A stretch of 64,000 nt of DNA from Sphagnum compactum (taxonomy: Eukaryota), in contig OZ234494.1 of assembly GCA_965153455.1 (NCBI GenBank), forward strand, positions 1,860,001 to 1,924,000, written 5' to 3'. This document shows, in pieces, positions 13,601-61,350 of the stretch. How positions within the stretch are numbered: the stretch's first letter is position 1; each line of letters opens with the position of its first letter. Under the pieces are notes generated by a model, which made no database searches, was not told the DNA's origin, and saw nothing but the letters and a program-made list of their open reading frames with translations. A program made the translations under genes and the position numbers.

Positions 13601-16600
13601 TGGATTCTTCATGTGCATTGATCACCTCCTTCCCTTTGCTCTGATGGTAAAGGTTCCACCTTCTCTCTGCAAAAGCAAACAAGATTGAGTACAGGACTCT
13701 CAAACCAAGGGTCATACCTTCATCTCTATGGCAGGCCTCTGACACCATCAGGGGCAGGTTAAAATAGTCACTCAAAAATAGATCCTAGATCTTATGGCTC
13801 TGTGTACATGATCTGGGCTATCTTCCTTTATTTTCATCAAATAATAGCTCACCTTCATAGGATACATGCAGACCCATTCTTTAAAATGTTAATGTGCCCT
13901 CCCAGGAGTAAAGGATATGGTGCTATTAATGTCTAGAAATAGACAAATCAGAAAAACAAGAAGACAAAGAAGGGGACTCATGAGGTTGTGTCCATTGAAA
14001 GGGTTGACTGGGGCTCTTATCACTGCTATCATATCCTTTTCAGTCATGGACCCTTCTTAGTAGTCACACACAGGGCAATCTAGTTGCCCACCAACTCTTT
14101 CTCTTTGGTGATTTGGCAACCCATATCCTCACAAACTGCAGGTGAACGGTTGTTCTAGTGAACCCTCATCATTTTCCAGTTGACTACAATGAGTAACACT
14201 TCATTTTTCCGCCTAGCAAAATTTAAATATATTTGATTGCAGAGAGAAACACCACGAAAAATAGGCAACCAAACTAGATCCATGAGAGTGTACAGTAAAC
14301 TCCTCCATTATATGTGAAGTAACCAAACAAATGTTGTGTCAGTTCTGGCCAAGCCAAAACAAGAATGAGTGTGTTCATAACTCTGTTAGTGTCACTCACA
14401 AAGTATCAGATCATCACTTTCATCATAAAAGATACAAGGCAGTAAATAGCAGCCATTACTCCCAACTGACTTCATCAACTTCAGATGTAAAATTCAGTGG
14501 GTGGAGATCAGTATGTAAAATTCTGCTAGCAAATAAGGCCACAATTATTAAAAACCCATCTTCTGAATTTCTGTTGCATTTTCTGAAGCAACAGTAAACA
14601 CTCATTGACCATGTCTGCCACTGAGATTGAAACCAAAACCTTGCAAGGTGACCATAAAGCACTAATCTAGAGGATATCAGATTGCTGCTCAAAACAAGGC
14701 ATGAGTACAAACCAGGTGATGAACTTTGACCTGAGAAGCCACTAACTTCACTTGCACTGCTGGCATGAGTGGTATCCCTCTCATCTTCCAAGCCCTGCAA
14801 AACCATGTCCTCTATTGGCACATGCTCAAACAATTTGTCTCTCAGCAACCATGAGGCATCCAGGGATCCTAGGCCAACCCCAACATTTGACAGGTAGTCC
14901 TCAGCCATCTCCTCACTGACATCAGAGCTGATTGGATCACTGTTACTTTCTTCTGACACACTGGAAGAGTCTTCTGACCCCCTGTATGCATTCCTACTCA
15001 ATCCAGAGGTCTGTTGAGACCAGTGCTTCTTTCTCTTCCAAGTTGTTTTGGGGCCAACATATCCTAATCCCCATTGAGCCTTCCCACTTGCTGAGTCAAG
15101 TGCCATATATACATCTTCCTCTTCATCTAGATGCTCATTTCCACATGTAGATCCTTGATCTGTCCATACCCTCACGCCCCCAATCCTCAAAAAGCCACTA
15201 CTAATCTTGCTGTTGGGAGTCCTTGAGTTGTGCATCTTCTTCTTCCTTTTATGCAAAACTGATGATGTTTTCCCACCTGCTGTCTTCTGCTCCAGCTGCA
15301 CTGAACTGTGGTGTCCTTGAGGGTCAACATTCATGGTCTCTACAGCAGCCACATCCTCATCTTTCTTAAATTTTACATTACTCTCCACAGCAAGGTTATC
15401 TGCTGCTGGCCCTAACTGCAACACTTCAGCCACAGATGTTAATTGGTCCTCCTCATCTGCAAACCCTAGTCCTCTTGTGCTCCTCATTTCTAGATCCAGA
15501 GTGTCTAACACCTGCAATGCCAACAGACAATGTACAGTTGACATAGATGTGTCACTAGAAGACTAAGTAGATCATTAAACAATCTTAATTCACTAGCAAA
15601 AGACATACCACCAATTCAAAGCATATAACACAGCTCTTGACATCATTGCCTTCAACAAACCTGCTCAAAAGATTTGGATCTATTGAAAACAATTAAATTC
15701 CTGACCAGATTAGCCAGTCAACAGAGAGACCTGCAGCCAGGTTGCAGAGATGCAACTGAGATAAGCTTGTCATATTAAAAGGAAACAATGGCACACCTCA
15801 AGGCATGGTCGCCGGTCCATCACAACTTCTGCACGATCTCGTGCAGCAGGGACAACTACCTCAACTTCACCACCTGCTTGTGCCTCCTCCCTTGCTACAG
15901 AAACATAAGCACTCTGCACACAAAGGCACCACTGATTGTTTACTTGAGAAATATATTAAGAGAAACAACTAAACATACAAAAGGGATGCAGCTCCTCAGA
16001 GGAAAAAGACTTTGTTAATAGGCTATTGCAATATTCCATGTCAGCTTGGTGTTAGTTTCTTAGATATTAAATACATAAAGAACATGGTGATCAGAGAGTG
16101 GTGCAATCACTGTGGCCCCTCCCCAACATCGGCAATCAACCTGGACTATACACGTTAGATCTCATGTGATTTCAATGTTGTTTACATTTAATGGCAATAG
16201 ACTGCTCTTACACATTGGTGATATGGAATAGAACATTCTATGTCACTAGTTTGATTGAAAACAGATTGTTGCTTCAGAAAGAGACAGAAAACATACAAAA
16301 GTGGCATTGCCTTCACTTCTTGCATAATCTCTGTCTCCATAAGAGTAGCCCACAGAAGTGAAGGTGTTCTGGGCAGGCCTGGCAATTGGGTGCTTCCTCT
16401 TTGACACTGGCCTACCATTGCTGGTCTGCTGCCTTCCAGAAGCACTGCCATTAACACCTCCCTGTGTCCTGCCCTTTCTGCTGTTCACTGAAAACAGCCA
16501 AAGAATTGAACCTAATGACAAGTTGGAAAAAACTACAATACAGAAACAGATCTATAGCAACTTGAGTAAAAAGGGTATTCAATATGTCAAACAGAAATTG

Positions 16601-38519: not shown

Positions 38520-40730
38520 TATGTTTCATGGTGAATGCAAATATCCCATGATGATGCAAGTATTACATTTAAACTCCATAATTTTGTTCAAATGATCTTT
38601 TACCATCAATGTGAAGAACTTTGCAATACCTTCATTTACTTGAATCAATATGTAGGGCATGTTATATAAAACATGGAATAAATATTTTTTAAAATATCAT
38701 TTTGTTTCATGGTTTAAGATATTATCACAATATGATGCAAGTACTACTTTCCTTCTAGGTTTTGGTATGGTTATGCAATACATTTACAAGTTTCAAAAGA
38801 TATGTTATAGAGCCCAAATGATTTTTGGGATACCTTGAAAAGAATAATGCATGTGCATTGAATATTTTTATTCATGAACAATACCCTTCCGATAGTTTAG
38901 ACCAAAATAATTTAGACCATGTTTGTCGCGACCTTAGCTTTGGGCTTGAAAAGGGGCGAGCCGAGAGTGAAGCCCAAGAGTCACATTCACACTCCCGAGA
39001 ATGTACGAAAATGTGAGGGAATGAACCCACACACACTCCCAAGTGGGCTCCCACTTTGGGAATTAAAGTGCCAATGGATTTTTGAATTTTCAAAGGGCGA
39101 TTTTAGGGTCAAAATTCATTAGATTGAAAAAATCTTTATACCATTGGAAAACTCTTGAAACTTAGATGTCTAAAATGGGTTTGCATGACCCATTTGAGTA
39201 TTTAAAACATAAGGTATGGCCGAAAGAAGGGCCGAAAGTCAAAGTGCCAATTTGACTCCCAACCATTAAAAGTCAGGAATTGCCATGATTTATTTGCATG
39301 CAGGTGGTTTGACACATATCATTGGAAAGCTCTTGACAAGGGCTACAATGTTTTTAGAAAACGTACATCAATTGGAGGTCTTCACAAAAAGTAGTTATGG
39401 GCCTCTAAAGTCGTGGGAAACTCAATTTTGGGACTCTTAACTTGGGAGTCCCGGGATAAAATGACATTTGGGTGCAGCCCCCATAGCTAATCACAGATAA
39501 TACTATAAGGGGGAAGGTGGTGGCTTCCCCCAAGTTTAGGCTATGGTGAATATTGTGAGTCCGTGTATGCCCATGGCTCGTCCGTGCACCAAAAGTGCTC
39601 CAACTATGCACTAACCAATTTGTTATTTGGTTTGTGCAGGTCCGTGTGAATAATTGACCCGCTTATCACTCGTCCTACTCTCCATCCCAGAGCTCCAACA
39701 TGCCCTTCTTACCCCGAAGTGTTACGAGCTAGGGAGCATACCCTAACTCTTTTTTTCTTCCGCTATTTTCACCTTTCGACTTGCAGTTGAGTCTATCAAG
39801 GAGTTTGGCGAGTGCATCAATGTTGGTAAGGTTGTGCATTACCCCTCCAAGTTTGAAAATATATGTTATGGAACCCAATGTATTTTTGGGATAACTTATA
39901 AAAGGTATTGCAGGTGTATTGTGTAATTTTGAACATGAGCAATACCCTTCTAATAGTGTACACCCATGGTGTTTAATTACTGAATACTCTAATGAAGGTA
40001 TTGTTTCTTTGTAGGTTTTGGTATGCCTATGCAATACCCCTGCAAGTTTCAAAAGAGATGTTATGGAACCCATGTATTTTTAGGACACCCTACAAAGGGG
40101 TAATGCATGTGCATTGAATATTCTTTGCCATATGTAATACCCCTTTAATAATTTAGACTAAAATAACTTAGCCCATGGTGTTTACTGAATACCCCAAGTA
40201 GGGTATTGTTTTGTTTATAGGTTTCGGTAGGGTTATGCAATACCCCTCCATGTTTCAAGTTATGGAACCCAATGTATTTTTGGGATACTTTGAAAAGGAT
40301 AATGCATGTTCATTGAATCTTTTTAGGCATGAACAATACCCCTCTAATGGCCTAGACCAAAATAATTCAGCCCATGGTGTTTCCAATGTAGCCCATTAAG
40401 GGTATTACATCCCATCTAGGTTTTGGTAGGGCTATGCAATATTCCTTCAATTTTCAAAAGATATGTTATGGAGCCCAATGTTTTTTTGGGATACTTTGAA
40501 ATGGGTATTGCATGTTCATTGAGTCTTTTTGGGCATGAACAATACCCATTTTATAGTCTAGACCAAAATAATTCAGCCCATGTTGTTTATAGTGTAGCCC
40601 AATGAGGGTATTGCATTCCTTCTAGGTTTTGGTAGGGCTATGCAATACCCCTCCAATTGTTGAAAGATATGATGTGGAGCCCAAATTATTTCAGGGTTAC
40701 CTAGAATGGGGTATTGTACATTCATTGAAT
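38520..40730. repeat. Right arm: ~6 tandem ~194-206-bp units in the opposite orientation, interrupted by a solo LTR
   Basis: TATGGARCCCAA-like anchors at ~38805, 39867, 40061, 40261, 40467 and 40673. Units are rich in GGGTATTG / CAATACCC. Confidence 0.85.
38924..39819. mobile_element. Solo LTR (896 bp) with 5-bp target-site duplication
   Basis: Begins TGTCGCG and ends GCATCA (TG...CA). Flanked by identical ATGTT at 38919-38923 and 39820-39824. No coding capacity. Confidence 0.85.
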
Positions 40731-41583: not shown

Positions 41584-44500
41584 TTAGTGGTCATCTCGAT
41601 CAACTAAAGCCTGGAGCACACTTGACTTTTGCTTCCCATATGTGCACCTACATATGTGCATGGCTCGATGATGAGCAGATTTAAACTGGACTGACTTCTT
41701 GCCAGTGGTGTGCTTTGCAGAATCCTTTGCAAGAACAGACATGTGTACTGTGCTTTCACTGCCAGGACACACAGCTGCCATAGCTTCAACTACAAGTTCT
41801 AAATGTGGACTCAACTCATGTTCACTAGTAATCAGGTCAATGAAATGCACAAAAGAACCCCTGATCCAGTTTTCTTCAACAGCCCTTAGCTTCAGGTCCT
41901 TCAACTTTCTCTCCAGCTCATGGCTGAACCTCAAGGCTGTTGTTGCCTGATTGTCTGCATGCTTTGCATCAGACACTTTCTCAGGCTTTGGCCTGGCTGC
42001 CAGCTCCATCTGTAGAGTGTGTAATCTGTCAGGTCAATTATAGCCCAAGATACAAATTGCATCTAAAAACTCTACAGGAACTAGGTTAAATATAATAATT
42101 CAAGTAGTCACAGTGCACGTAAAGCAAGAGAAACACCACCAACCAGGATGTATACACACCCAAATTACGAAACAGGAAGGCACTTACAAGCTTTCTATAG
42201 TGATTTGTAACTTGAGACAGAGGGGTATGCAGTGCATCTTCCAGTTTGCAACGTGGGCAGTGGCAAACAAAGCCCCATCCCTTGGTACTCAGGTCCTTCC
42301 GCTGTTGATGTGGCTGGAAGATATCAAAGTAGCCTCGAGTGATCTCTTCCCCAGCCTGCAACTCACGGGATGCAAAAACAAACAGAGCTCTCCCCACCAA
42401 TATTTGTGATGAATTGGGCATACATGAATGGTTGATGAAGGACGGTAGCCACCATAGCCCCCAGTTCTCAACCTGCACCCATATATATCTCCATTCAAAT
42501 AAGTAAAAAGAAGTGTGCAAAGTGTTGATAACACTTGCCCCAGTTGCATATATACCAAGCACTTCTTGAGAAATTCCTACTTGAGAGCCTAGATGTGTTA
42601 GAAGACAATAAACATTATATCTATGAAATTGCAGAGCCCCATGGCCCCCATAGCCCCCAGTTCTCAACCTGCATCCATGCATATCTCCATTCAAATAAGT
42701 AAAAAGAAGTGTGCAAAGTGTTGAGAACACTTGCCCCAGTTGCATACATACTAAACACTTCTTGAGAAATTTCTGCTAGAGAGCCTAGATGTGCTAGAAG
42801 ACATTAAACATTATATCTATAAATTGCAGAGCAATCTTCACAACACCTTGAAGGTGACACAACAATAAGTGCAGTCATAGCCTCATGAGGGTCACTCACA
42901 CAAAGTGTCAGACCATAACTTTCATCATGAATAGCAGCAACATGTTGACATTAAAACATTAATCAGCAAAATATAAACTGACCTTGATTTCCTGATCTCC
43001 TGAACCTGGCAGATTCTTCCACCCTATAGTGGCATTCCCATTGAAAGCATTCAGCTGAATAATGCGGTGGATGCAGCTAGCATCAAGTGGGGCCATAGCT
43101 ACAGGACTGCACCTACTGTTTGAGGTCAGCAAATTTGCAGGAGGAGTTGGCAATTTTTTGACTCCATCAAATAACATGTGCAACTTTTGATTATCCCAGC
43201 CCAAAGCATGTGGATTTGCACAGATTGGACCAAATGCTTCCTGGACCTTCCGATTAATGGATTGCTCAGAAACTTCAACTCCTGTTTGATGATCGAAACT
43301 TTGCACCTCCGTGAAAGCTATGGGATTTGAAACAAGTAAAAGCTCCCCAGCCTCCACGTGTTTTTTCAAAACCAGCCCACGCCCACATCCATGACCCACC
43401 TCAGCAACCTTAACAGGGCCAATGTAATCAGTGCAGGAAGGAAACTCCCCAACATACCTTCCCCTCAAATAGAAATTTGACAGGTCAAACAAACCCATTT
43501 CACTTTGCTGGACACGGATGATGCTCTCATGAAGTGCAGCTTGAAGGTCTTTGTCTGATGGAGCCCGTGGAGCAGCTTCCTGCAAGGCAAAACACCATTA
43601 CATTCAGAAGGTTGACACAAATTAAAGAAAAACAACTGTGCATTTGTACAATTCATACTGATGGGGTTAGACATGTCAACAATACTCAATAAGAATGTAA
43701 TTGTGCACGAGTCACTTAACATTGTAGATGACAGACACACATCACATCCACCAGTGTCTATGCAGATGCTGGAGTTTGTTGAGCATTAGTGGTGACACCA
43801 CATACTAGATGTGTCAGTCAGGAACTTTCTACCAGCACTTCAAACTGTTTAGAGAAATATCTAGTCTTAACCACAGATTCTGACTGCAGTATTAACTGAT
43901 GTACTCACAGAATAAACAGAGATTGGTTTGGTCATGTGGATAGAAGGACAGACGCACGCACTCGTAAGATTAAATTAGCATCATGGTACTGGTGAAGTCC
44001 AAGCAATGCCCTTCCTTTTCTGAACAGGCTTTTGAGGTGGTCATGTTGTAGGGCAAGTGCCTTTTCAGCATCCTCCAACCCCTTCTCATACTCATGAAGT
44101 CGAATCCAGGCTTCTGCACGGTTGGAAAATCCAAGCAACACTTCAGATTCAGATGCATGGCCATTTGTTACACCACTCTTCTCTGTGGATGTAGCAGATC
44201 TGGTACGCTCCTGCTCCTTCATTGCCTGAAGAATACCCCTTGTATACAGTTCTGTGGCACCACGAAAGTCTTCATGCAGGAAAAGTTTGTTTCCTTGCAA
44301 GCGTAATGCATGGGCACTGAAACTCTCCTTTGGCGTACTGCTCAAATCAATCTCCTGTTGAGCTTCACCACGATTTGGTTTGGGAACCTCACCTGTTTTC
44401 TCATATTTTGAAGTTTCAACAATCACTGGCCCAGTCTGGGTATTCCTATCAAGATGGCACCTTTCCAATTCAACAGTCTCAACAAGGTTGTTATTTGATA

Positions 44501-47500
44501 GAGTGCAACTGGACTCCTGCACAACTGGCCTGCTCACAACTTCTTTAGATTCCTCACTCTTTGCTTCTCCAACCTCTGAGGCAACAGGTATATCTTCAGT
44601 TTCTTCATCATGCATAACATCTTCATCCTCACTTGTGCTTGGCAAAATCTCATTACACTCCACTGCTGCACTGCTGACAACTTCTTTCACTCCATGACTT
44701 GTTGTTGCTTCCATCTCTAAAGCCCCAGCTACATCTTCACTTCCTTCATTGCGCCTATCATTGTCAGTGCCTTCATCCACACTTCTGCTCGAGAAAATTT
44801 CATTAGATTCCTCTGTGGCTGGACTGCTGAGAGTCTCTCTTGCTACATTGCTCTTTTCTGCTTGTAGCACTGAAACCCCAGCTATACTTTCTTCATCAAA
44901 TCTAGCACCTTCATCCACACTTAGGTTTGAAAAAAATTCATCAGACTCTTTTGTGGCTATACTTGGCACAATCTTTTCATCATTCTTTTCTGCTTCCACC
45001 TCTACCACCCCAGGTCTATCTTTGCTTTCTTCATCATGCCTAACATCATTTTCTTCATCATGGTTAACATGTTCAATGCCTTCATCCACACTTTTGCTTG
45101 GCATAATTTCATTACAATCCTCCATGCCTAGACTGCTGACAACTCCCTTCAATTCATAACACCTTTCTGTTTCCATTTCTGAGGCCCCAGCTTTCTCTTC
45201 ACTTTCTTCATCATGTTTAACATGTTCAATGCCTTCATCCACACTTGTGCTTGGCATAATTTCATTGCAATCCTCCATGAGTGGGTTACTGGCAACTCCC
45301 TTCAATTCATCACTCATTTCTGCTTCCATTTCTGATGCCCCAACTTTATCTTTACATTCTTCATCATGCCTATCAACTTCATCCATACTTGTCAATGGAA
45401 ATTTGTCCTTCTCCACAGCTGGACTGCTGACAAACTCCGCAGCTTCATCACTCTTTTCTGCTTCCATGTCTGATGCCCCAACTTCATCTTTAATTATGTC
45501 ACCAAACCTTTCATCTTCATATCCTTCACCCACAATTGTGCTTGGCATAAGTTCATTAGACTCTTCTGTAGCTGGGCTGCTGACACCATCCTTCACTTCA
45601 TTGGTCTTTTCTTTCACCTCTGAAACTCTCGTTATATCTTCAATTTCTTCACCATGCCTATCATCTTCGGTGCCTTCATCCATCCTTGTGCTTGGTGAAA
45701 TTTCATTACACTCCTCCACTGCTAGGCTGCTGACGACCTCCTTTGATTCATTGTTCCTTTCTTCTTCCATCTCTGATGCCTCAGCTTTATCTTCAATTTG
45801 TTCATCACACCTTTCATCTTCGGTGCCTTCATCCACACCTGTGCTTCGCACAAGTTCATTAAAATTTTCTGTGGCTGAGATACTGACAACCTGCTTCACA
45901 TCATCAGTCCTTTCTGCTTCCACCTTTGAAATCCCAGTTAAATCTTCACTTTCTTCATTGCACCTATCAACTTCAGTGTCATCATCCACATTTTTACTTT
46001 GCAAAATTTCATTACACTCCTCCATAACCAGGCTGCTGACAACCTCTTTTGTTTCATCACTCCTATTTGTTTCACCACCAAAAATCCCACTGACAGCTTC
46101 CCTGTATCCATCACCCTTTTGAAATTTGGTGGCGTCACCCGCACTGTTGCTTTTGGTGGCTGTGGTGCCAACAACCTCATCTGCAGCATCATCCAGTGAT
46201 TTAGCATATGAATTCCCAAAATCAATTGCACTGTCCACATTATATTTTTCAGATATAGTGGCTTCAACCATGCTTTTGCTTGATGAAATCTTGGGAAAAT
46301 CAGCCACAACTGCCCTGCTAACCACCTTTCCTGCTTGAGCATTATTAGATGTGTCAGAATGTCCCACAGTTGCCCTGTTCAAATCACCTAATCCAGATTC
46401 ATTGGCTTCAACAACATTTTCTCTTTCTGAACCTTCATCTTTGATCTCCTCCACAGCTGGGTGGCTAACAACTTCTGTTTCACCAATGTCAGCATTTGGA
46501 ACCCCAGTTACAGCATCCCCATTTACATGACATGGTTCAGTTTGGGCAGCTTCATCCAGATCTTTGCTTGGTAAAAAATCTTCTTTGACCTCCCCAACAT
46601 CTTTATCTTTTTGACAGGTTCCTGCACCTAAATCCCTCACTGTGGATACATCCTCTGCTGCTGAACCTTGTGGCTCCACAATGTTATCTTGTGGGAATGG
46701 AATCTCAACCTCTTTGGCATCTGTGTGATGATCTCGTTTACACATATCAGCATCTACTATGACAGAAGATTGTTTTTGGTGATCACCTTGCTGAGTCACA
46801 CCAGCATTTACAAGGAAAGAAGCTACTTTGTGAGTGCTGTCAGGGCTTTGAGACATAGTGTCATTGCTGCTATTGTGAACAACTGATTCACTATGCTTTG
46901 GACTTGTGAAAGCCCAATGACCCTCAGGAGTCATGGGCCTCGAAAGAAACACCATGTCAGTGGGATGTTCAACTAGTATACCAACAAGCCCATCTGGGAA
47001 CCTAGTCAAATAAGGGTCCCTTATTGCAACCCTTGATCCCTCTGGAAAGTAATGCTGTGCTTGTGCCATGCTGGCCCTTAGGGGCACTGAATTTTTCAGC
47101 ATCAGTATTGTTGCCAATCCAGAGTCTTCCTCCAATACGCTCACCTGGAGACCCCACACCCAACATAAGGTCTGTAAATTGTCAACAGTTTCTGCTCTGC
47201 AATTCAAGAGCAGCACCTTAAGGTAATATCATGCCTACCTCAACAGAGTCTCTCACGACAAACAGCCCTCTTGCTCCAAGAATTGCTTGTAAGCAGGAGC
47301 TGATACTCCATTCATTCTGCAGCCTCTTATAGGGCTGCTCCGACCACTATATTGAGAAAGTCGCTCTATTTGTCGCGGAGAAGGGAAATCACTCTCCGAA
47401 TTTCAATGCCCGACTATGCGCCAACTACAGAGACTACTTTTCTTGCAGGGGACGCCTCTCAAGATGCACATTACTTTAACGTGATTAGCGTTTTTTTGCT

Positions 47501-53290: not shown

Positions 53291-56200
53291 TCAAGAGGTC
53301 CTCCCCTTTCTCTATTTGATATGCTGGTGCTTTGGTTTATTTAAAAGATTAGCAAGGATTCATCATTTTGCTTTCTTGTTATGTAAGTAGAACAAAAAGT
53401 AACAAATTCAAACCAAAGTTGGTTGATTATTGATTTTTTCAATATTTGTCGAATTGGTTATTAATTTTTTAGGTATCAAATATTTTTTAAATTCAAATTT
53501 TTAGATATTCACTTCATATTAATGTGTTGGAAAATTCAGTCAATAAAGGTATCATATTTTTTTGAATTTTATGGCTAAGAATTGGCAAATATGCGGGCTA
53601 GTTTTTGAAAGACCTTGTTGAAAACCGGCCAATATAATGCCTAGTCCAATTATCAAACAATAAATTTCTTGGTTTTTTTTTAAGCAATTTTTTTACCAAT
53701 CTTCTTGTTTTCATTTTTTTTACATTAAGCAAAACTCTCAAACTCTCATTGTGTAATAAGATTATCATGGAACCACACCTTATTTCTTTGCATTCACACA
53801 TTTACACATTATTCCATTGCATTCACACAATTTCACACTATTCCATTGGATTCACACATTTACATGAAGGTTGGATTGGATCAGACTTTCATAATCTATT
53901 AAGATACCACCTTGATGATCTACCAATCACAACTCTTCAAACCCATTCAATCCATGTTCCTTGCAGCTTTATATTTCTAAACTTGAATTTCTTTTTATAA
54001 ACATAATTATATTTCTAATGGTCACGCCACACTTGGAGGTAGTGTGTTTTTTCTAATTTTTCCTAATTAACGTCTAAAGAAGTGGCACCTACCAACCAAA
54101 AGTTATCTACCACTTACTTTCTACCTTCCTCCTAACTTTTTATCTATGGCTTGTCCACAGATAAAGCTTTAGGGCACGGTTAACTTAGTTTTTAAAGCTT
54201 TTTCAAAATAGTGGCCACACCATGTGATGATGATTCGGACTTTCTATTCTTTTTTTTCCCATAATCATCAGTGCCACATTAAAACATAACTTCTTCAAAA
54301 CTTCCTTCAAGTTGCTTTTGCATTTGTTGTTGTCCATGTTGATGCAAAAAAAGGAGAGCAGCAAATCCAAATTGCAAGGTTTGTGTTGCTACAAGAGAGG
54401 GATAAAAACAAAGTCTAGAAATTGCATGTGAAGGCAATAGACATGAATGCTCGCCAAGGTTGAAGGCCTTAGCGTTAAGTTACCACTGAATTATCTTAAA
54501 GTTATTAATGGAGATTACTACCTTTGGCATTTTTTGAAAAAATCTTCTAATTTTGTAGATTTGAAGAAAGTTAGTTAACTTTGACTTACCTCCCCCTTCC
54601 ACATCAACATCCACATAAGATCCATGTAGGATTTAAAGGTAGGTACCTTTTTATGTGTGGCTACAATAATAACTTTATCGCCACTAACTCTAAAATAACT
54701 CTAATATACCTCCAAGTGTGGCATGACCATAAACATGACTTCATTTTCATAATTTGGAATTAAATGACCAATAAAAAATAAACCAATAGCCTTTATAATC
54801 TCTATTGACTCATGCCTTCTCTCACAAAACCTAAAAGCCAAACCGTCATTTCCCAAATCCAATTCAATCCTAATTCCTTGCATTTATTTCTCTAAACACA
54901 ACTTCATTTTCACAATCTAAAATTGAATAAAATTATTCACCTTTCATGAACAAATCATTAAGACCTAATGAAACATGTCTAATCTTTGTTATGCCACCAT
55001 CTCTCATCACCACTTATTACTTTACTTTATTTATGGTTCAATATAGTTGGTACATGCAAATTTTATAAAGGGTTTGATAACAACGTACAGCGAACATAAA
55101 ATTACTATAGCATGTTACCATCACCAAATTGAAGAATAGCTCCCACTTTGTGAAAGAGCAACCCCACATTGTCAATGAGCAGCACCCAAGCTTGCAGGTT
55201 GGGTTCACAAGATCTATTGATGATGTTGTTTTTGGGAAGGCAAGGACTAAAGTCAATGAGATCCAATTTAGTGATAGATTAGTGAGAATAGGTACCTTGC
55301 AAACCTATTGGCTAGTGTGGGTATACTTTATGTACCATCCACTAATAGATGCAATTGTTTGATGCGCCTTAGTTGGAACCTTCATTTGATTTGTTTCCAA
55401 TGCCATTTCATGATGTCACCTCCCATCTAAACTCTTGGATATTCTATTTCTATCCTTTCACATTTTCAATACCAACAAGATAATATGGTATGATGCTAAA
55501 TGAATAAATTACAAAGAGAAAAGAAGAGTATTGGATCAAAAGATGTAGGGGCAAACGCAAAATGTGCCAAATAGCTCCATTTGTTTGTCAGTATAAAATG
55601 CACATTTGCACACAACCTAGTCAAAACACAAATGGACAACATTTAATTATGCACAAACGCCATGGGGCACAAAATCATTCATCAAAAGACAAAATTTTAA
55701 CAACCAATGGACCTAGTTGTGAACAACAAACAAAATAATTGGTGTTCCTAGCTTTAATAACTCTACACAATGTATACATGTTTATTCATAACGTGCATTC
55801 AATCAACATTAAATATTATGAGAACGTTTTTTTTTCCCCTAATTAATCAAAATCCAAGATGTTGATTATTAAAGGTCAGAACTTTAAAATGAAATAGATG
55901 GCAAATATAAATAATTTCAAATCAATTGTGCATGGGAAATCAAACACTTTACCCTTGGATTGAGAATTGAAAAAGGAGTTGGTCCATGCAAATTAGAGAA
56001 CATTGCTAACTATCGTAACACATGAACAGTTTCAGCATAAATTAAATTATTCCTGATTTTGTCGAATTTTGAAAAAATATTTACGACTTGTGCTGAAATT
56101 TTAATAATTATTATAAAATCAAAATTTGAAGTATTCATCTATAGGGTTTGAAATTCAGACCTACCACTTTAAAAAGGTTAAGAATGTTTAGACACATTTA

Positions 56201-58598: not shown

Positions 58599-59804
58599 TT
58601 AATTGGGATACCCCTAAAAGTGACACCTTTCACCCATTTTCATCCTCATTTGGCTGTTTCACCCTCACTTTGTAGCTATCCTTAAAGTCTTTTAAATTGG
58701 GACCCAAAGTTCAACAACAAGAATACGCTCTCCAAATTTCGACATGGTTAATATTTTTAAACTATATTTCCAAATCTTGTGTCTACTTAAAGGATCTACC
58801 TACCTTGGTTAAGGACCTACTTAGGCTACCTACCCACTTACCTAGAATACTTACTTACTTGCCTATCTAAGTTACCTATCCATCTATTTATTTGCTTAGA
58901 TTACTTATTCACCTAGGCTACCTACATCCTTACCTAAGTGCTAGGCTACTTACTTATGTACCCACTTACCCATTTAGGCTACCTACCTTCTTATATTTCC
59001 TAGCTAGGTCTGTTTCTACACAAAGGAAGAAACATGGATGGGGGACCAAATTAGTTTTACCTCAATTTTAGGAGGTTTGTGTAGATTGTATTTTTTTCAA
59101 AAAATTGAATTAAATCCTGGTGGTTATACAAGGTGATGAATATTGAAAAACAAGGATTCGAAAAGATATAGGCCATAAGGGATTTGAAGAATTTAGAATG
59201 TTTCAAAATAAAAAAACAATTGTGAAAGATCCATCATTTAAAATATATTTTATTATATACATAACATGAATTTCATTGTGTAATTTCAACTAAAAACTAG
59301 AAACTCTGGATTGCAAGTTTGAAAGTTCAACGAATCCATCAATAGTTGGCATATTATTACAATTACAATTAAAATATTCATGATTTTCCAATACTTAGAT
59401 AAACAACATCAACATTTTCTCGAAATAGATTTCCAATTGGAGAACATTGGTTTTTACCCTTTCAAACTACAAACATTGTTGGATAGTCTATAGACATTAA
59501 TCCAAACCAATTGCAAGCAAAAAATCAATAATTAAATTTGATAAGTAGACATAATACAATCGTTAACCTGAAAACACATGTAATCAATTTGTCTCAAATA
59601 TAAGGTGAAAGTTTTATACCTAAAAAAAATTGAATAATGCCAATATCCCCATTAATTTTTTCATATATTGCATAAACCAAGAATAATTCAATGGAAAGGA
59701 AGTTAACATGGCTTAAAATATTGACATGATTTCATAATGTAATGCTAGTTGTTTTTGCCAATGACTGTTCAATCAATGCTAGCCACAAATGAAATGCAAA
59801 GTCC

Positions 59805-60100
59805 AACCATTGTCAAAGATGTCTTTCTTAGTAAGCATAACTATGATTGATGCACATTCAGTTTTAAAAAGTTCCACCAAACTTGCCTCTAAAAGTTCTT
59901 TCGTCTTAGCTTTAACCAAAGCTCGTTCCATATCATTCAACCTATAAGGTCGTTAAAAAATAAGGGTATCATCATCCAAGATGATCCGTACTTCTTGCCT
60001 TTTGAGTTTGCCTAACTCTTCGAGGTTGAAAGCAAAACAATGCACATACTTTTATAAAAATTGTTGCACCTTGCGTGCCTCACCTCTTGTTAATGTCGGA
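59805..60100 (-). mobile_element. Ty3/gypsy pol fragment: start of the reverse transcriptase
   Basis: PTLTRGEARKVQQFL*KYVHCFAFNLEELGKLKRQEVRIILDDDTLIF*RPYRLNDMERALVKAKTKELLEASLVELFKTECASIIVMLTKKDIFDN. This follows the gypsy pre-RT pattern PxxxxPYRxxxxE...LLxxGxxExSxxxxAxxxVxxxKKD. Truncated afterwards. Confidence 0.8.
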
Positions 60101-60539
60101 GACCAATTTCAGGATCCAATGTGTTTGCAATTATAGGTGTTTAGGGCAATGGTGACTCATCCCTAATGCCCGAGGTTGAAAACACACCTTGTAATTGCTA
60201 CAAGGTTGATATGGGAACATCCAAACTTGAAGCCCCCATTCCATGTGCATTTGAAGTCCCTTCAACTTTTTCAAACAAGTTCAAAATCTTGAATGCCAAA
60301 AATGCATTTGACATGTGTTCTCCCCACTCCAAACATTGAGCCTCATGTCATCCATCACCCTTTCCTTTCATGAAAAATCCCATAATTGGCAAGGATGTTT
60401 GGCCCATTTGGGATCATCAAATGTGACCCCATGATCAGGCTGCCACCCTACATGAATGTACGTAACCCAAGATGAAATGCAAGAGATGATGAAGAAAGGG
60501 AAACATGGGTGGTTAAGTGGGTGGGAAATGAACAATTGT

Positions 60540-61350
60540 TGGTGTTCAACCAAACTTGGGCTAATGACCCATGTCACATAGTTCAAGTCCATGACTTGAC
60601 CAAGGAAAAGCCTTCTAATGGCTTCCTATAAGCCAACGAGATGAATGGTGTGGGTATGAAACCCCATAACACATTCATGTTCATTAACATTGGGTTCCAT
60701 CCAACATGAATGTTGTGAATCCCAAATCATGTCAGGACCATCATCTTGAAATACATGTGAAACTAGAAAGTTCATGATGGTGGGCAATGTTGCTCGTGGT
60801 CAGCCCACCTTTTTGAAAATGTCAAGAGGTGGCCGATCATCATGTTGCACTATGTGGGACATGTGTCCTAGATCCAAAATGGCATCCACTATAAGATTTT
60901 GAGGTCATGGCACCAAATGGTATGTTCGTTGCAACAATTCTAGTGGTGTTATATTGGTCCATAACCACTATAACCAATGTGCATGATATTGCACTAATGC
61001 AACATCCACCAAAATGGGCTAGCCCAACCAACCATGAACTTGATCCCATGTCATCAAAACCTGTAGCCATAAATCACCTAAAGGATGGACATTCTCCAAA
61101 AGATAAATGAATGGTTTGTAAATGCAACACCATTTGTAGGAGCTACCAAAAGAACCTCGATCTTGGGTCAAGCAAACCACTGCCTATGCTTACTTTAAAA
61201 TGATTTTGACTGACCATCCAACTACGACCATATCCACTAGGCCAACATCATCCAAATGTTGTGCCCCTAACAATATAATGTCTTGAAGTAATGCCCCCAA
61301 ATATCCACGCAGAGCTATAGTTGGTAATAGTAGCTCTAGATATTGATCCT
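60540..61350 (-). pseudogene. Decayed C5 cytosine DNA methyltransferase domain, retrotransposon-borne
   Basis: Motifs occur in order: VDMVVVGWS(C)Q (IV, ~61205-61237, 1-nt frameshift), GLLDPRSRFFW (V), IYLLENV (VI, ENV at 61088-61096), VDVALVQYHAHWL*WLWTN (VIII), EPNVNEHECVMGF (IX), EAIRRLFLGQVMDLN (X, ~60581-60625). Motif I is absent. Confidence 0.8.

Follow-up and report, generated by a model that had tools for sequence, protein, structure and literature searches.

A window of 64,000 nucleotides (nt) in the Sphagnum compactum contig OZ234494.1, the whole stretch analysed here and the source of all positions given below, very probably contains a decayed internal fragment of a Ty3/gypsy long terminal repeat (LTR) retrotransposon that encoded a DNMT3-like cytosine-5 (C5) DNA methyltransferase (DNMT). 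As delimited by tblastn, the minus strand from 59782 to 61330 is a single colinear piece of about 1.5 kb from the interior of an element of about 9 kb. The fragment comprises most of the methyltransferase domain (motifs IV, VI, VIII, IX and X), the tail that follows it, the stop UAG-CAA-UUA and about 105 residues from the beginning of the reverse transcriptase (RT) open reading frame (ORF) (Table 1), and its GC content of 0.38-0.43 stands out from the 0.26-0.30 of its flanks. A preliminary description of this DNA had proposed such a relic at 59805-61350; the relic itself stands, with its limits now corrected, and the peptides quoted in support of it are found in the minus-strand translations at that place. 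Of the C5-methyltransferase motifs that it had named, IV, VI, VIII, IX and X are likewise recognisable in alignments and follow one another in unpermuted order, motif I being missing or unrecognisable in the window copy. The distance of about 450 bp that it gave between the methyltransferase and the start of RT does not hold, since ~480 bp separate the end of motif X from the start of homology to the RT ORF (60102) and ~630 bp separate it from RPYRL (59938-59952, minus strand).

The methyltransferase part is identified through its relatives. A phmmer search with the read-through frame of the relic (P0001) against 1.84 billion representative proteins returned 536 relatives at E<=1e-3, 180 at E<=1e-10 and nine at E<=1e-30. 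Thirteen of these were scanned against Pfam, in which PF00145 (DNA_methylase) has a cut-off of 22 bits: 11 match this family at E<=0.01 and 10 reach the cut-off, and the two that lack it (P0004 and P0009) are short proteins starting past motif IV. In tblastn, residues 1343-1603 of P0008, a metagenome protein of 1775 amino acids (aa), match 61327-60560 (E 1.6e-34), while P0004 of Calypogeia fissa and P0009 of Marchantia match the window with E-values of 2e-45 and 4e-35, respectively. Scanning metagenome contigs with alignment A1 gave 160 matching stretches; relatives are encoded by 84 of them, and 80 were retained as loci. All 80 match the DNMT frame of the window, 61 match the RT-start piece (with identities of about 46-54% in the displayed rows) and 41 match the frame-shifted piece of motif IV. 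Given the E-values of the tblastn and phmmer matches, the resemblance reflects real descent and not chance. The lack of a Pfam match among the translations of the window might be taken to suggest that decayed, AT-rich repeat DNA has come to look like methyltransferase motifs by accident; however, the matches to independent proteins, with E-values of 1e-34 to 1e-45, leave this explanation a negligible probability.

The methyltransferase and RT pieces appear to have been inherited together. Residues 993-1251 of ORF1 and 29-134 of ORF2 of the intact locus L001 match 61327-60566 and 60102-59782 (E 4e-22), respectively, leaving the rest of the window unmatched (tblastn), and the span covered is nearly equal in the two, with 1546 nt in the window against 1536 nt in L001. 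The RT-start piece is also matched by L004 (E 7e-24, tblastn). Furthermore, the Closterium protein P0108 matches the DNMT and RT-start pieces in order (tblastn), as do seven loci (L040, L043, L055, L057, L061, L073 and L074) at 64-72% nucleotide identity. These comparisons support the linkage of the two pieces and speak against a chance juxtaposition. A host DNMT3 or DRM pseudogene lying beside an unrelated gypsy RT fragment would account for the DNMT3-like character of the domain and for the window holding no other parts of an element. Such a history is nevertheless hard to reconcile with the agreement in span, with the conserved UAG-CAA-UUA junction between the two pieces, or with the matches of P0108 and the seven loci to both pieces in order. 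In addition, the close relatives are all element-borne, with a gag CCHC motif and protease upstream and RT downstream, and the Pfam lists of the relatives suggest no sign of introns or of PWWP/ADD or UBA parts. We therefore regard a host pseudogene as highly improbable.

Within the C5 methyltransferases, the domain is nearest to DNMT3A/B/C, as judged from profile comparison and predicted structure, both applied to relatives of the window copy. A2, a profile of nine DNMT domains, matches DNMT3A at 8e-22 and DNMT3B/3C at ~1e-20, followed by DRM (3e-9), HhaI and HaeIII (1e-6) and DNMT2 (1e-3). The profile alignment pairs AHRlRlwwtN with AAHRARYFWGN, and ErERAMGF..RrqlLG with EMERVFGF..RQRLLG, of DNMT3A. 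An AlphaFold2 model of the L004 domain (predicted local distance difference test, pLDDT, 82.7; predicted template modelling score, pTM, 0.85) superposes on DNMT3A-DNMT3L (6f57_D) with template modelling (TM) scores of 0.69/0.79 and an E-value of 1.7e-18, and the listed top matches are all DNMT3A, B or C. The affinity with DNMT3 that had been suggested from the letters of the relic is thus shared by profile and model. Intact relatives possess motifs I, IV (GWPCQ), VI, VIII, IX and X, all in unpermuted order. Most of the 27 locus copies that were translated keep GWPCQ, and five (L001, L002, L004, L007 and L063) have no stop in the domain. For the one pair of copies compared, L001 and L002, the ratio of nonsynonymous to synonymous substitution rates (dN/dS) in the DNMT domain is 0.13 at a dS of 0.26. 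The relic is a decayed derivative of a C5 methyltransferase member and not itself a member that scores against the profile.

The better preserved members of the family reveal the architecture of the element. P0112 (2188 aa) runs from zf-CCHC through Asp protease, DNA_methylase, RVT_1 and RNase H to integrase, which is the single-ORF arrangement that had been predicted; zf-CCHC is also present in P0091 and P0136, and P0008 joins the DNMT to a gag with CCHC and a protease with the DSGA motif. In L001, ORF1 holds the protease (PR) and DNMT, and ORF2 holds RVT_1, RNase H and integrase (INT) with a C-terminal plant homeodomain (PHD) finger; PF00145 scores 51.1 bits in L001 and 49.8 bits in L004. 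In most of the 80 loci, local tblastn with segments of protease, DNMT, RT, RNase H and integrase recovers this order along a single strand. The protease lies upstream of the DNMT in 46 of the 56 loci having at least 1200 bp upstream, and RT is encoded on the DNMT strand no more than 2 kb downstream in 50 of the 60 loci having at least 1200 bp on that side, in agreement with the expectation that the DNMT would be linked to gypsy RT in other copies. The preliminary description was also right in placing the DNMT just before RT, but not in placing it inside pol: in the bryophyte clade it forms the C-terminal part of a gag-PR-DNMT ORF, which a UAG separates from RT.

LTR pairs were recovered by self-blastn in four of 18 loci (L047, L059, L015 and L007). 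They are 307-344 bp long and 86-94% identical (342 bp and 92% in L047), delimit elements of ~9.0-9.1 kb, and begin with TGTCATG.. and finish with ..TTTTCA, giving TG..CA ends. No target-site duplications were evident in the displayed flanks of the LTR-bearing loci. In L059, a 115-bp repeat of 93% identity (15312-15426 and 15766-15880) brackets the 3' LTR and produces a B-A-B layout. This DIRS-like arrangement occurs in one of the four loci, the B repeat being absent from L047 and L015 and L007 ending at its LTR. A pararetrovirus is ruled out, as the relatives have an integrase and LTRs. A second architecture, RT-RNaseH-DNMT-INT-PHD, is found in P0046, P0071, P0073 and P0054 and includes a homologous DNMT; between the two architectures the domain has apparently shifted its place in the polyprotein. 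A PHD finger (PF00628) ends the integrase in L001 (5086-8226) and in these four proteins. In chromoviruses, a chromodomain occupies the position at which these integrases end in a PHD finger. It is conceivable that the PHD finger could steer integration by reading histone tails.

The junction between the DNMT and RT suggests how the enzyme may be expressed. The gag-PR-DNMT and RT regions share one frame split by a single stop in L001, L002, L004 and L007. Of 46 loci, 29 show TAG-CAR-YYN in frame between the DNMT and RT, a word whose overall background is 0.165 per kb; the commonest junction is TAG CAA CCC (21 loci), L004 has TAG CAA CCA, and L001 and L002 have TAG CAG TTA. The algal-type P0112 has no stop at the junction. 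UAG-CAR-YYA is the read-through context of tobacco mosaic virus. We propose a model in which most ribosomes would stop at the UAG and release Gag-Pro-DNMT, and occasional read-through would yield the full Gag-Pro-DNMT-Pol. Because the DNMT sits upstream of the UAG at which most ribosomes would stop, the methyltransferase would be made in Gag-like amounts and probably carried with the particle, where it may methylate the new complementary DNA (cDNA) of the element or nearby DNA, much as has been proposed for the Klebsormidium Gypsy-Dnmt3.

The window copy can no longer take part in such a cycle; it is non-functional now and has lost both ends and the catalytic Pro-Cys. It carries at least eight stops and at least four frameshifts, in keeping with its earlier description as dead. 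Stops interrupt the DNMT frame at 61021, 60970, 60907, 60802 and 60628, the motif IV piece at 61145 and the RT piece at 60054 and 59955, and the frame changes at and past motif IV, ahead of the TAG and again ahead of the RT piece. The catalytic Pro-Cys was destroyed by a change of CCA to TCA and by the loss of one base from the Cys codon; the orthologue on contig L066 reads GWPCQNH, with the Cys that had been guessed to be missing. L066 is syntenic with window 63421-51290 (12 kb) at 82-88% identity and bears the same fragment with the same ends. Five of 11 checked stops (60970, 60907, 60802, 60370 and 60111) are shared with L066, which lacks the other six. From the identical ends and the shared stops it follows that the fragment had lost its ends and its function by the time of the common ancestor. 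The presence of the relic at a syntenic place might also be expected if it had been kept by a host takeover that made it, for instance, a regulatory element or a non-coding RNA. However, any old neutral insertion is expected to be shared, the stops are both shared and private with no surviving open frame, and identity to L066 is 0.89-0.92 inside the relic, below the 0.92-0.96 of most flanking non-coding DNA. This lack of extra conservation in the relic relative to its flanks argues against retained function, and we consider a host takeover very unlikely. The slightly greater divergence at 59750-61250 would be compatible with accelerated CpG loss through methylation in an ancient transposon. 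A further contig, L077 (1-3351), aligns with window 62732-58444 and joins window 62436 directly to ~61263, so that some 1.2 kb of AT-rich sequence upstream of the relic is missing from it, and it includes a 150-bp stretch resembling window 38942-39094.

Relatives with names occur in both bryophytes and algae. Carriers in Marchantia polymorpha include Mp_4g09160, Mp_8g17980, Mp_6g11220 and several MARPO models. The three annotated genes Mp_4g09160, Mp_8g17980 and Mp_6g11220 are in fact gag-PR-DNMT ORFs whose catalytic motifs are all present; in Mp_4g09160, a protease motif and all six motifs of the DNMT accompany two CCHC patterns. PF00145 scores 35.6 and 34.9 bits in the Marchantia proteins Mp_4g09160 and Mp_8g17980. 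The other named carriers are Calypogeia fissa, Sphagnum fallax, three Closterium strains and Cymbomonas, and no Klebsormidium name appears among the DNMT matches of the protein searches. In public annotation, at least one gag-PR-DNMT ORF (Marchantia P0302, P0297) is called a DNA (cytosine-5) methyltransferase. The bryophyte-like host envisaged for this DNA agrees with an aldehyde dehydrogenase in the window, which is nearest to proteins of Sphagnum compactum (71% identity), Marchantia and Riccia (69%) and Calypogeia (68%), followed by Diphasiastrum (66%), Chara (60%) and Klebsormidium (59%). In a FastTree phylogeny of 34 DNMT domains, none dropped and unrooted without an outgroup, the RT-RNaseH-DNMT-INT-PHD proteins, including the Cymbomonas protein, form a separate clade (Shimodaira-Hasegawa (SH)-like support 0.99).

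These observations lead us to a broader scenario, in which a gypsy lineage with a working DNMT3-like methyltransferase persisted from green algae into land plants and survives, intact and perhaps still active, in liverworts and mosses, Marchantia polymorpha among them. The enzyme would form the end of Gag-Pro, ahead of a leaky UAG, would match the capsid in abundance, and would methylate either the new DNA of the element or the DNA of the host. We offer this scenario tentatively, and consider it somewhat more likely to be wrong than right in its entirety.

Several observations count against the interpretation of the fragment or against this wider scenario. PF00145, to which the preliminary description had looked for confirmation, gives no match at E<=10 to the six ORF pieces or three read-through frames of the window, the copy being too decayed; by itself this outcome would have counted as a refutation on the terms of that description. 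RVT has no match to these pieces and frames either. The RT-start piece has no RVT match in the Pfam scan either, which we attribute to its position upstream of the beginning of RVT_1. A phmmer search of the PDB with the read-through frame returned three unrelated matches only (E 0.58-0.79), and the assignment of the window copy to the DNMTs depends on transitive homology. No gag, CCHC, protease, RNase H, integrase or LTR of the element is found elsewhere in the 64-kb window, nor is a second copy of the relic or any flanking repeat. Within the family, 10 of the 60 loci mentioned above have no downstream RT, including the window orthologues L066 and L077 as well as L049 and L051, in which the integrase comes directly next. 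LTR pairs are limited to the four loci described, and a repeat search found no direct repeats of at least 80 nt in L001, L031, L032 or L024. The value indicating purifying selection comes from one pair of copies, and the aldehyde dehydrogenase that places the host among the bryophytes is one gene only. The window copy joins a Marchantia-Sphagnum-Calypogeia clade with an SH-like support of 0.80 and on a very long branch in the tree, which has no outgroup. Finally, read-through, packaging and enzyme activity of the living element are steps that we infer.

Table 1. Coordinates of the retrotransposon relic and its parts in the 64-kb window.
Feature	Position	Strand	Description	Basis
Whole relic	59782..61330	minus	Corresponds to intact locus L001, ORF1 residues 993-1251 plus ORF2 residues 29-134	tblastn, GC block
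DNMT stretch between motifs I and IV (..LPTIALRGYLGALLQDIILLGAQHLDDVGLVDMVVV)	61220..61330	minus		Alignment A1; tblastn of P0008, P0012 and L004 begins at 61327-61330
Motif IV, broken	61146..61219	minus	GWS at 61211-61219, Ser for Pro; Cys codon minus one base; QNHFKVSIGSGLLDPRSRFFW at 61146-61208 in the next frame	
Motif VI, ENV	61088..61096	minus		Invariant column in alignment A2
Motif VIII, AHWL(stop)WLWTN, with in-frame stop	60953..60982	minus	AHRPRLWWTN in intact relatives	Aligns with AAHRARYFWGN of DNMT3A via family profile
Motif IX region, NEHECVMGF	60659..60685	minus	DERERAMGF in relatives	Alignments and family profile
Motif X region, RRLFLGQVMDLN	60581..60616	minus	RRQVLGQAMDLN in relatives	Alignments and family profile
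TAG CAA TTA	60192..60200	minus	Conserved in-frame stop of the family, boundary of gag-PR-DNMT ORF and RT ORF	
Start of pol ORF, pre-RT leader and RT N-terminus (..LTRGEARKVQQFL(stop)KYVHCFAFNLEELGKL..RPYRLN..KKD..)	59782..60102	minus	Ends after ~105 residues	

Elsewhere in the window, a unit of 29-31 nt is repeated three times in tandem at 84% identity in AT-rich intergenic DNA (53776-53864). A 1098-aa open frame on the minus strand (43932-47228) consists mostly of acidic repeats of ~50 residues (..VSSPA.EE.NE..PS..VDEG.ED..); its C-terminal end is TPR-like by eye only, and exons of a SET domain adjoin it at 42086-43597.

The kind of element described here is already known from the Gypsy-DNMT3 of Klebsormidium, and is here observed in land plants. 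According to the available part of the original report, KnitGypsy-Dnmt3 of Klebsormidium nitens is an LTR Gypsy element whose Pol ORF contains a Dnmt3-related domain without introns or permutation; key residues of this domain are conserved and its Ka/Ks is below 0.2 (de Mendoza et al. 2018, PMC5890265), and the repeat layout of the element is DIRS-like, A-coding-B-A-B (PMC5890265, Fig. 4c legend). 'Streptophytes (Gypsy-DNMT3)' are cited as a known case in the accessible portion of a later source (10.64898/2026.05.21.726589). The elements studied here share with KnitGypsy-Dnmt3 an unpermuted, Dnmt3-related DNMT inside a Gypsy coding region, a streptophyte host and purifying selection (0.13, from one pair here). 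Compared by published description, they differ in having land-plant hosts, a DNMT that ends the gag-PR-DNMT ORF before a UAG, where the paper speaks of a 'Pol polyprotein ORF', and a PHD finger on the integrase (PMC5890265, in its available part); that part of the text contains zero mentions of Marchantia, moss, liverwort or PHD. The same portion reports two retrotransposons of Symbiodinium with a captured DNMT, SymbioDIRS-Dnmt3 and SymbioLINE-Dnmt, for which self-methylation of cDNA was proposed (PMC5890265). These are also cases of DNMT capture, but by retrotransposons of another class (DIRS with a tyrosine recombinase; LINE) in another host kingdom, and represent an independent capture. No land-plant report of such elements was found in the literature searched, which yielded only the two sources cited here on element-borne DNMTs and in which subscription journals are thinly covered and figures and supplements lie outside, so that absence from print is unproven.

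With respect to host enzymes, the element domain has its closest profile and fold matches in DNMT3A/3B/3C of animals and plant DNMT3, with which it shares the motif order I-IV-VI-VIII-IX-X. It differs from host DNMT3 in lacking PWWP/ADD, in being fused to gag-protease and in a longer stretch between motifs VIII and IX. Plant DRM2 also has a DNMT3-derived catalytic domain, but gives the weaker profile match stated above, and its motif order is permuted (PMC5890265, available part), whereas that of the element domain is not. The RT-RNaseH-DNMT-INT-PHD elements have a homologous DNMT (28-31% identity to the window) and likewise a PHD after the integrase, but their DNMT sits between RNase H and integrase and belongs to its own clade.

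Retrotransposons that carry a methyltransferase invert the picture of methylation as a host defence, and those described so far, in the accessible text of PMC5890265, come from dinoflagellates and one charophyte alga. The relic is of value because it points to a DNMT3-bearing gypsy family among bryophytes that has intact copies in a model liverwort. Since Marchantia is genetically tractable, the role of a transposon-borne DNMT is directly addressable in a land plant. Moreover, gag-PR-DNMT ORFs listed as host 'DNA (cytosine-5)-methyltransferase' genes may inflate the DNMT counts of bryophytes. The UAG-CAR-YYN junction and the PHD finger of the integrase offer leads on the expression of the element and its choice of integration site.

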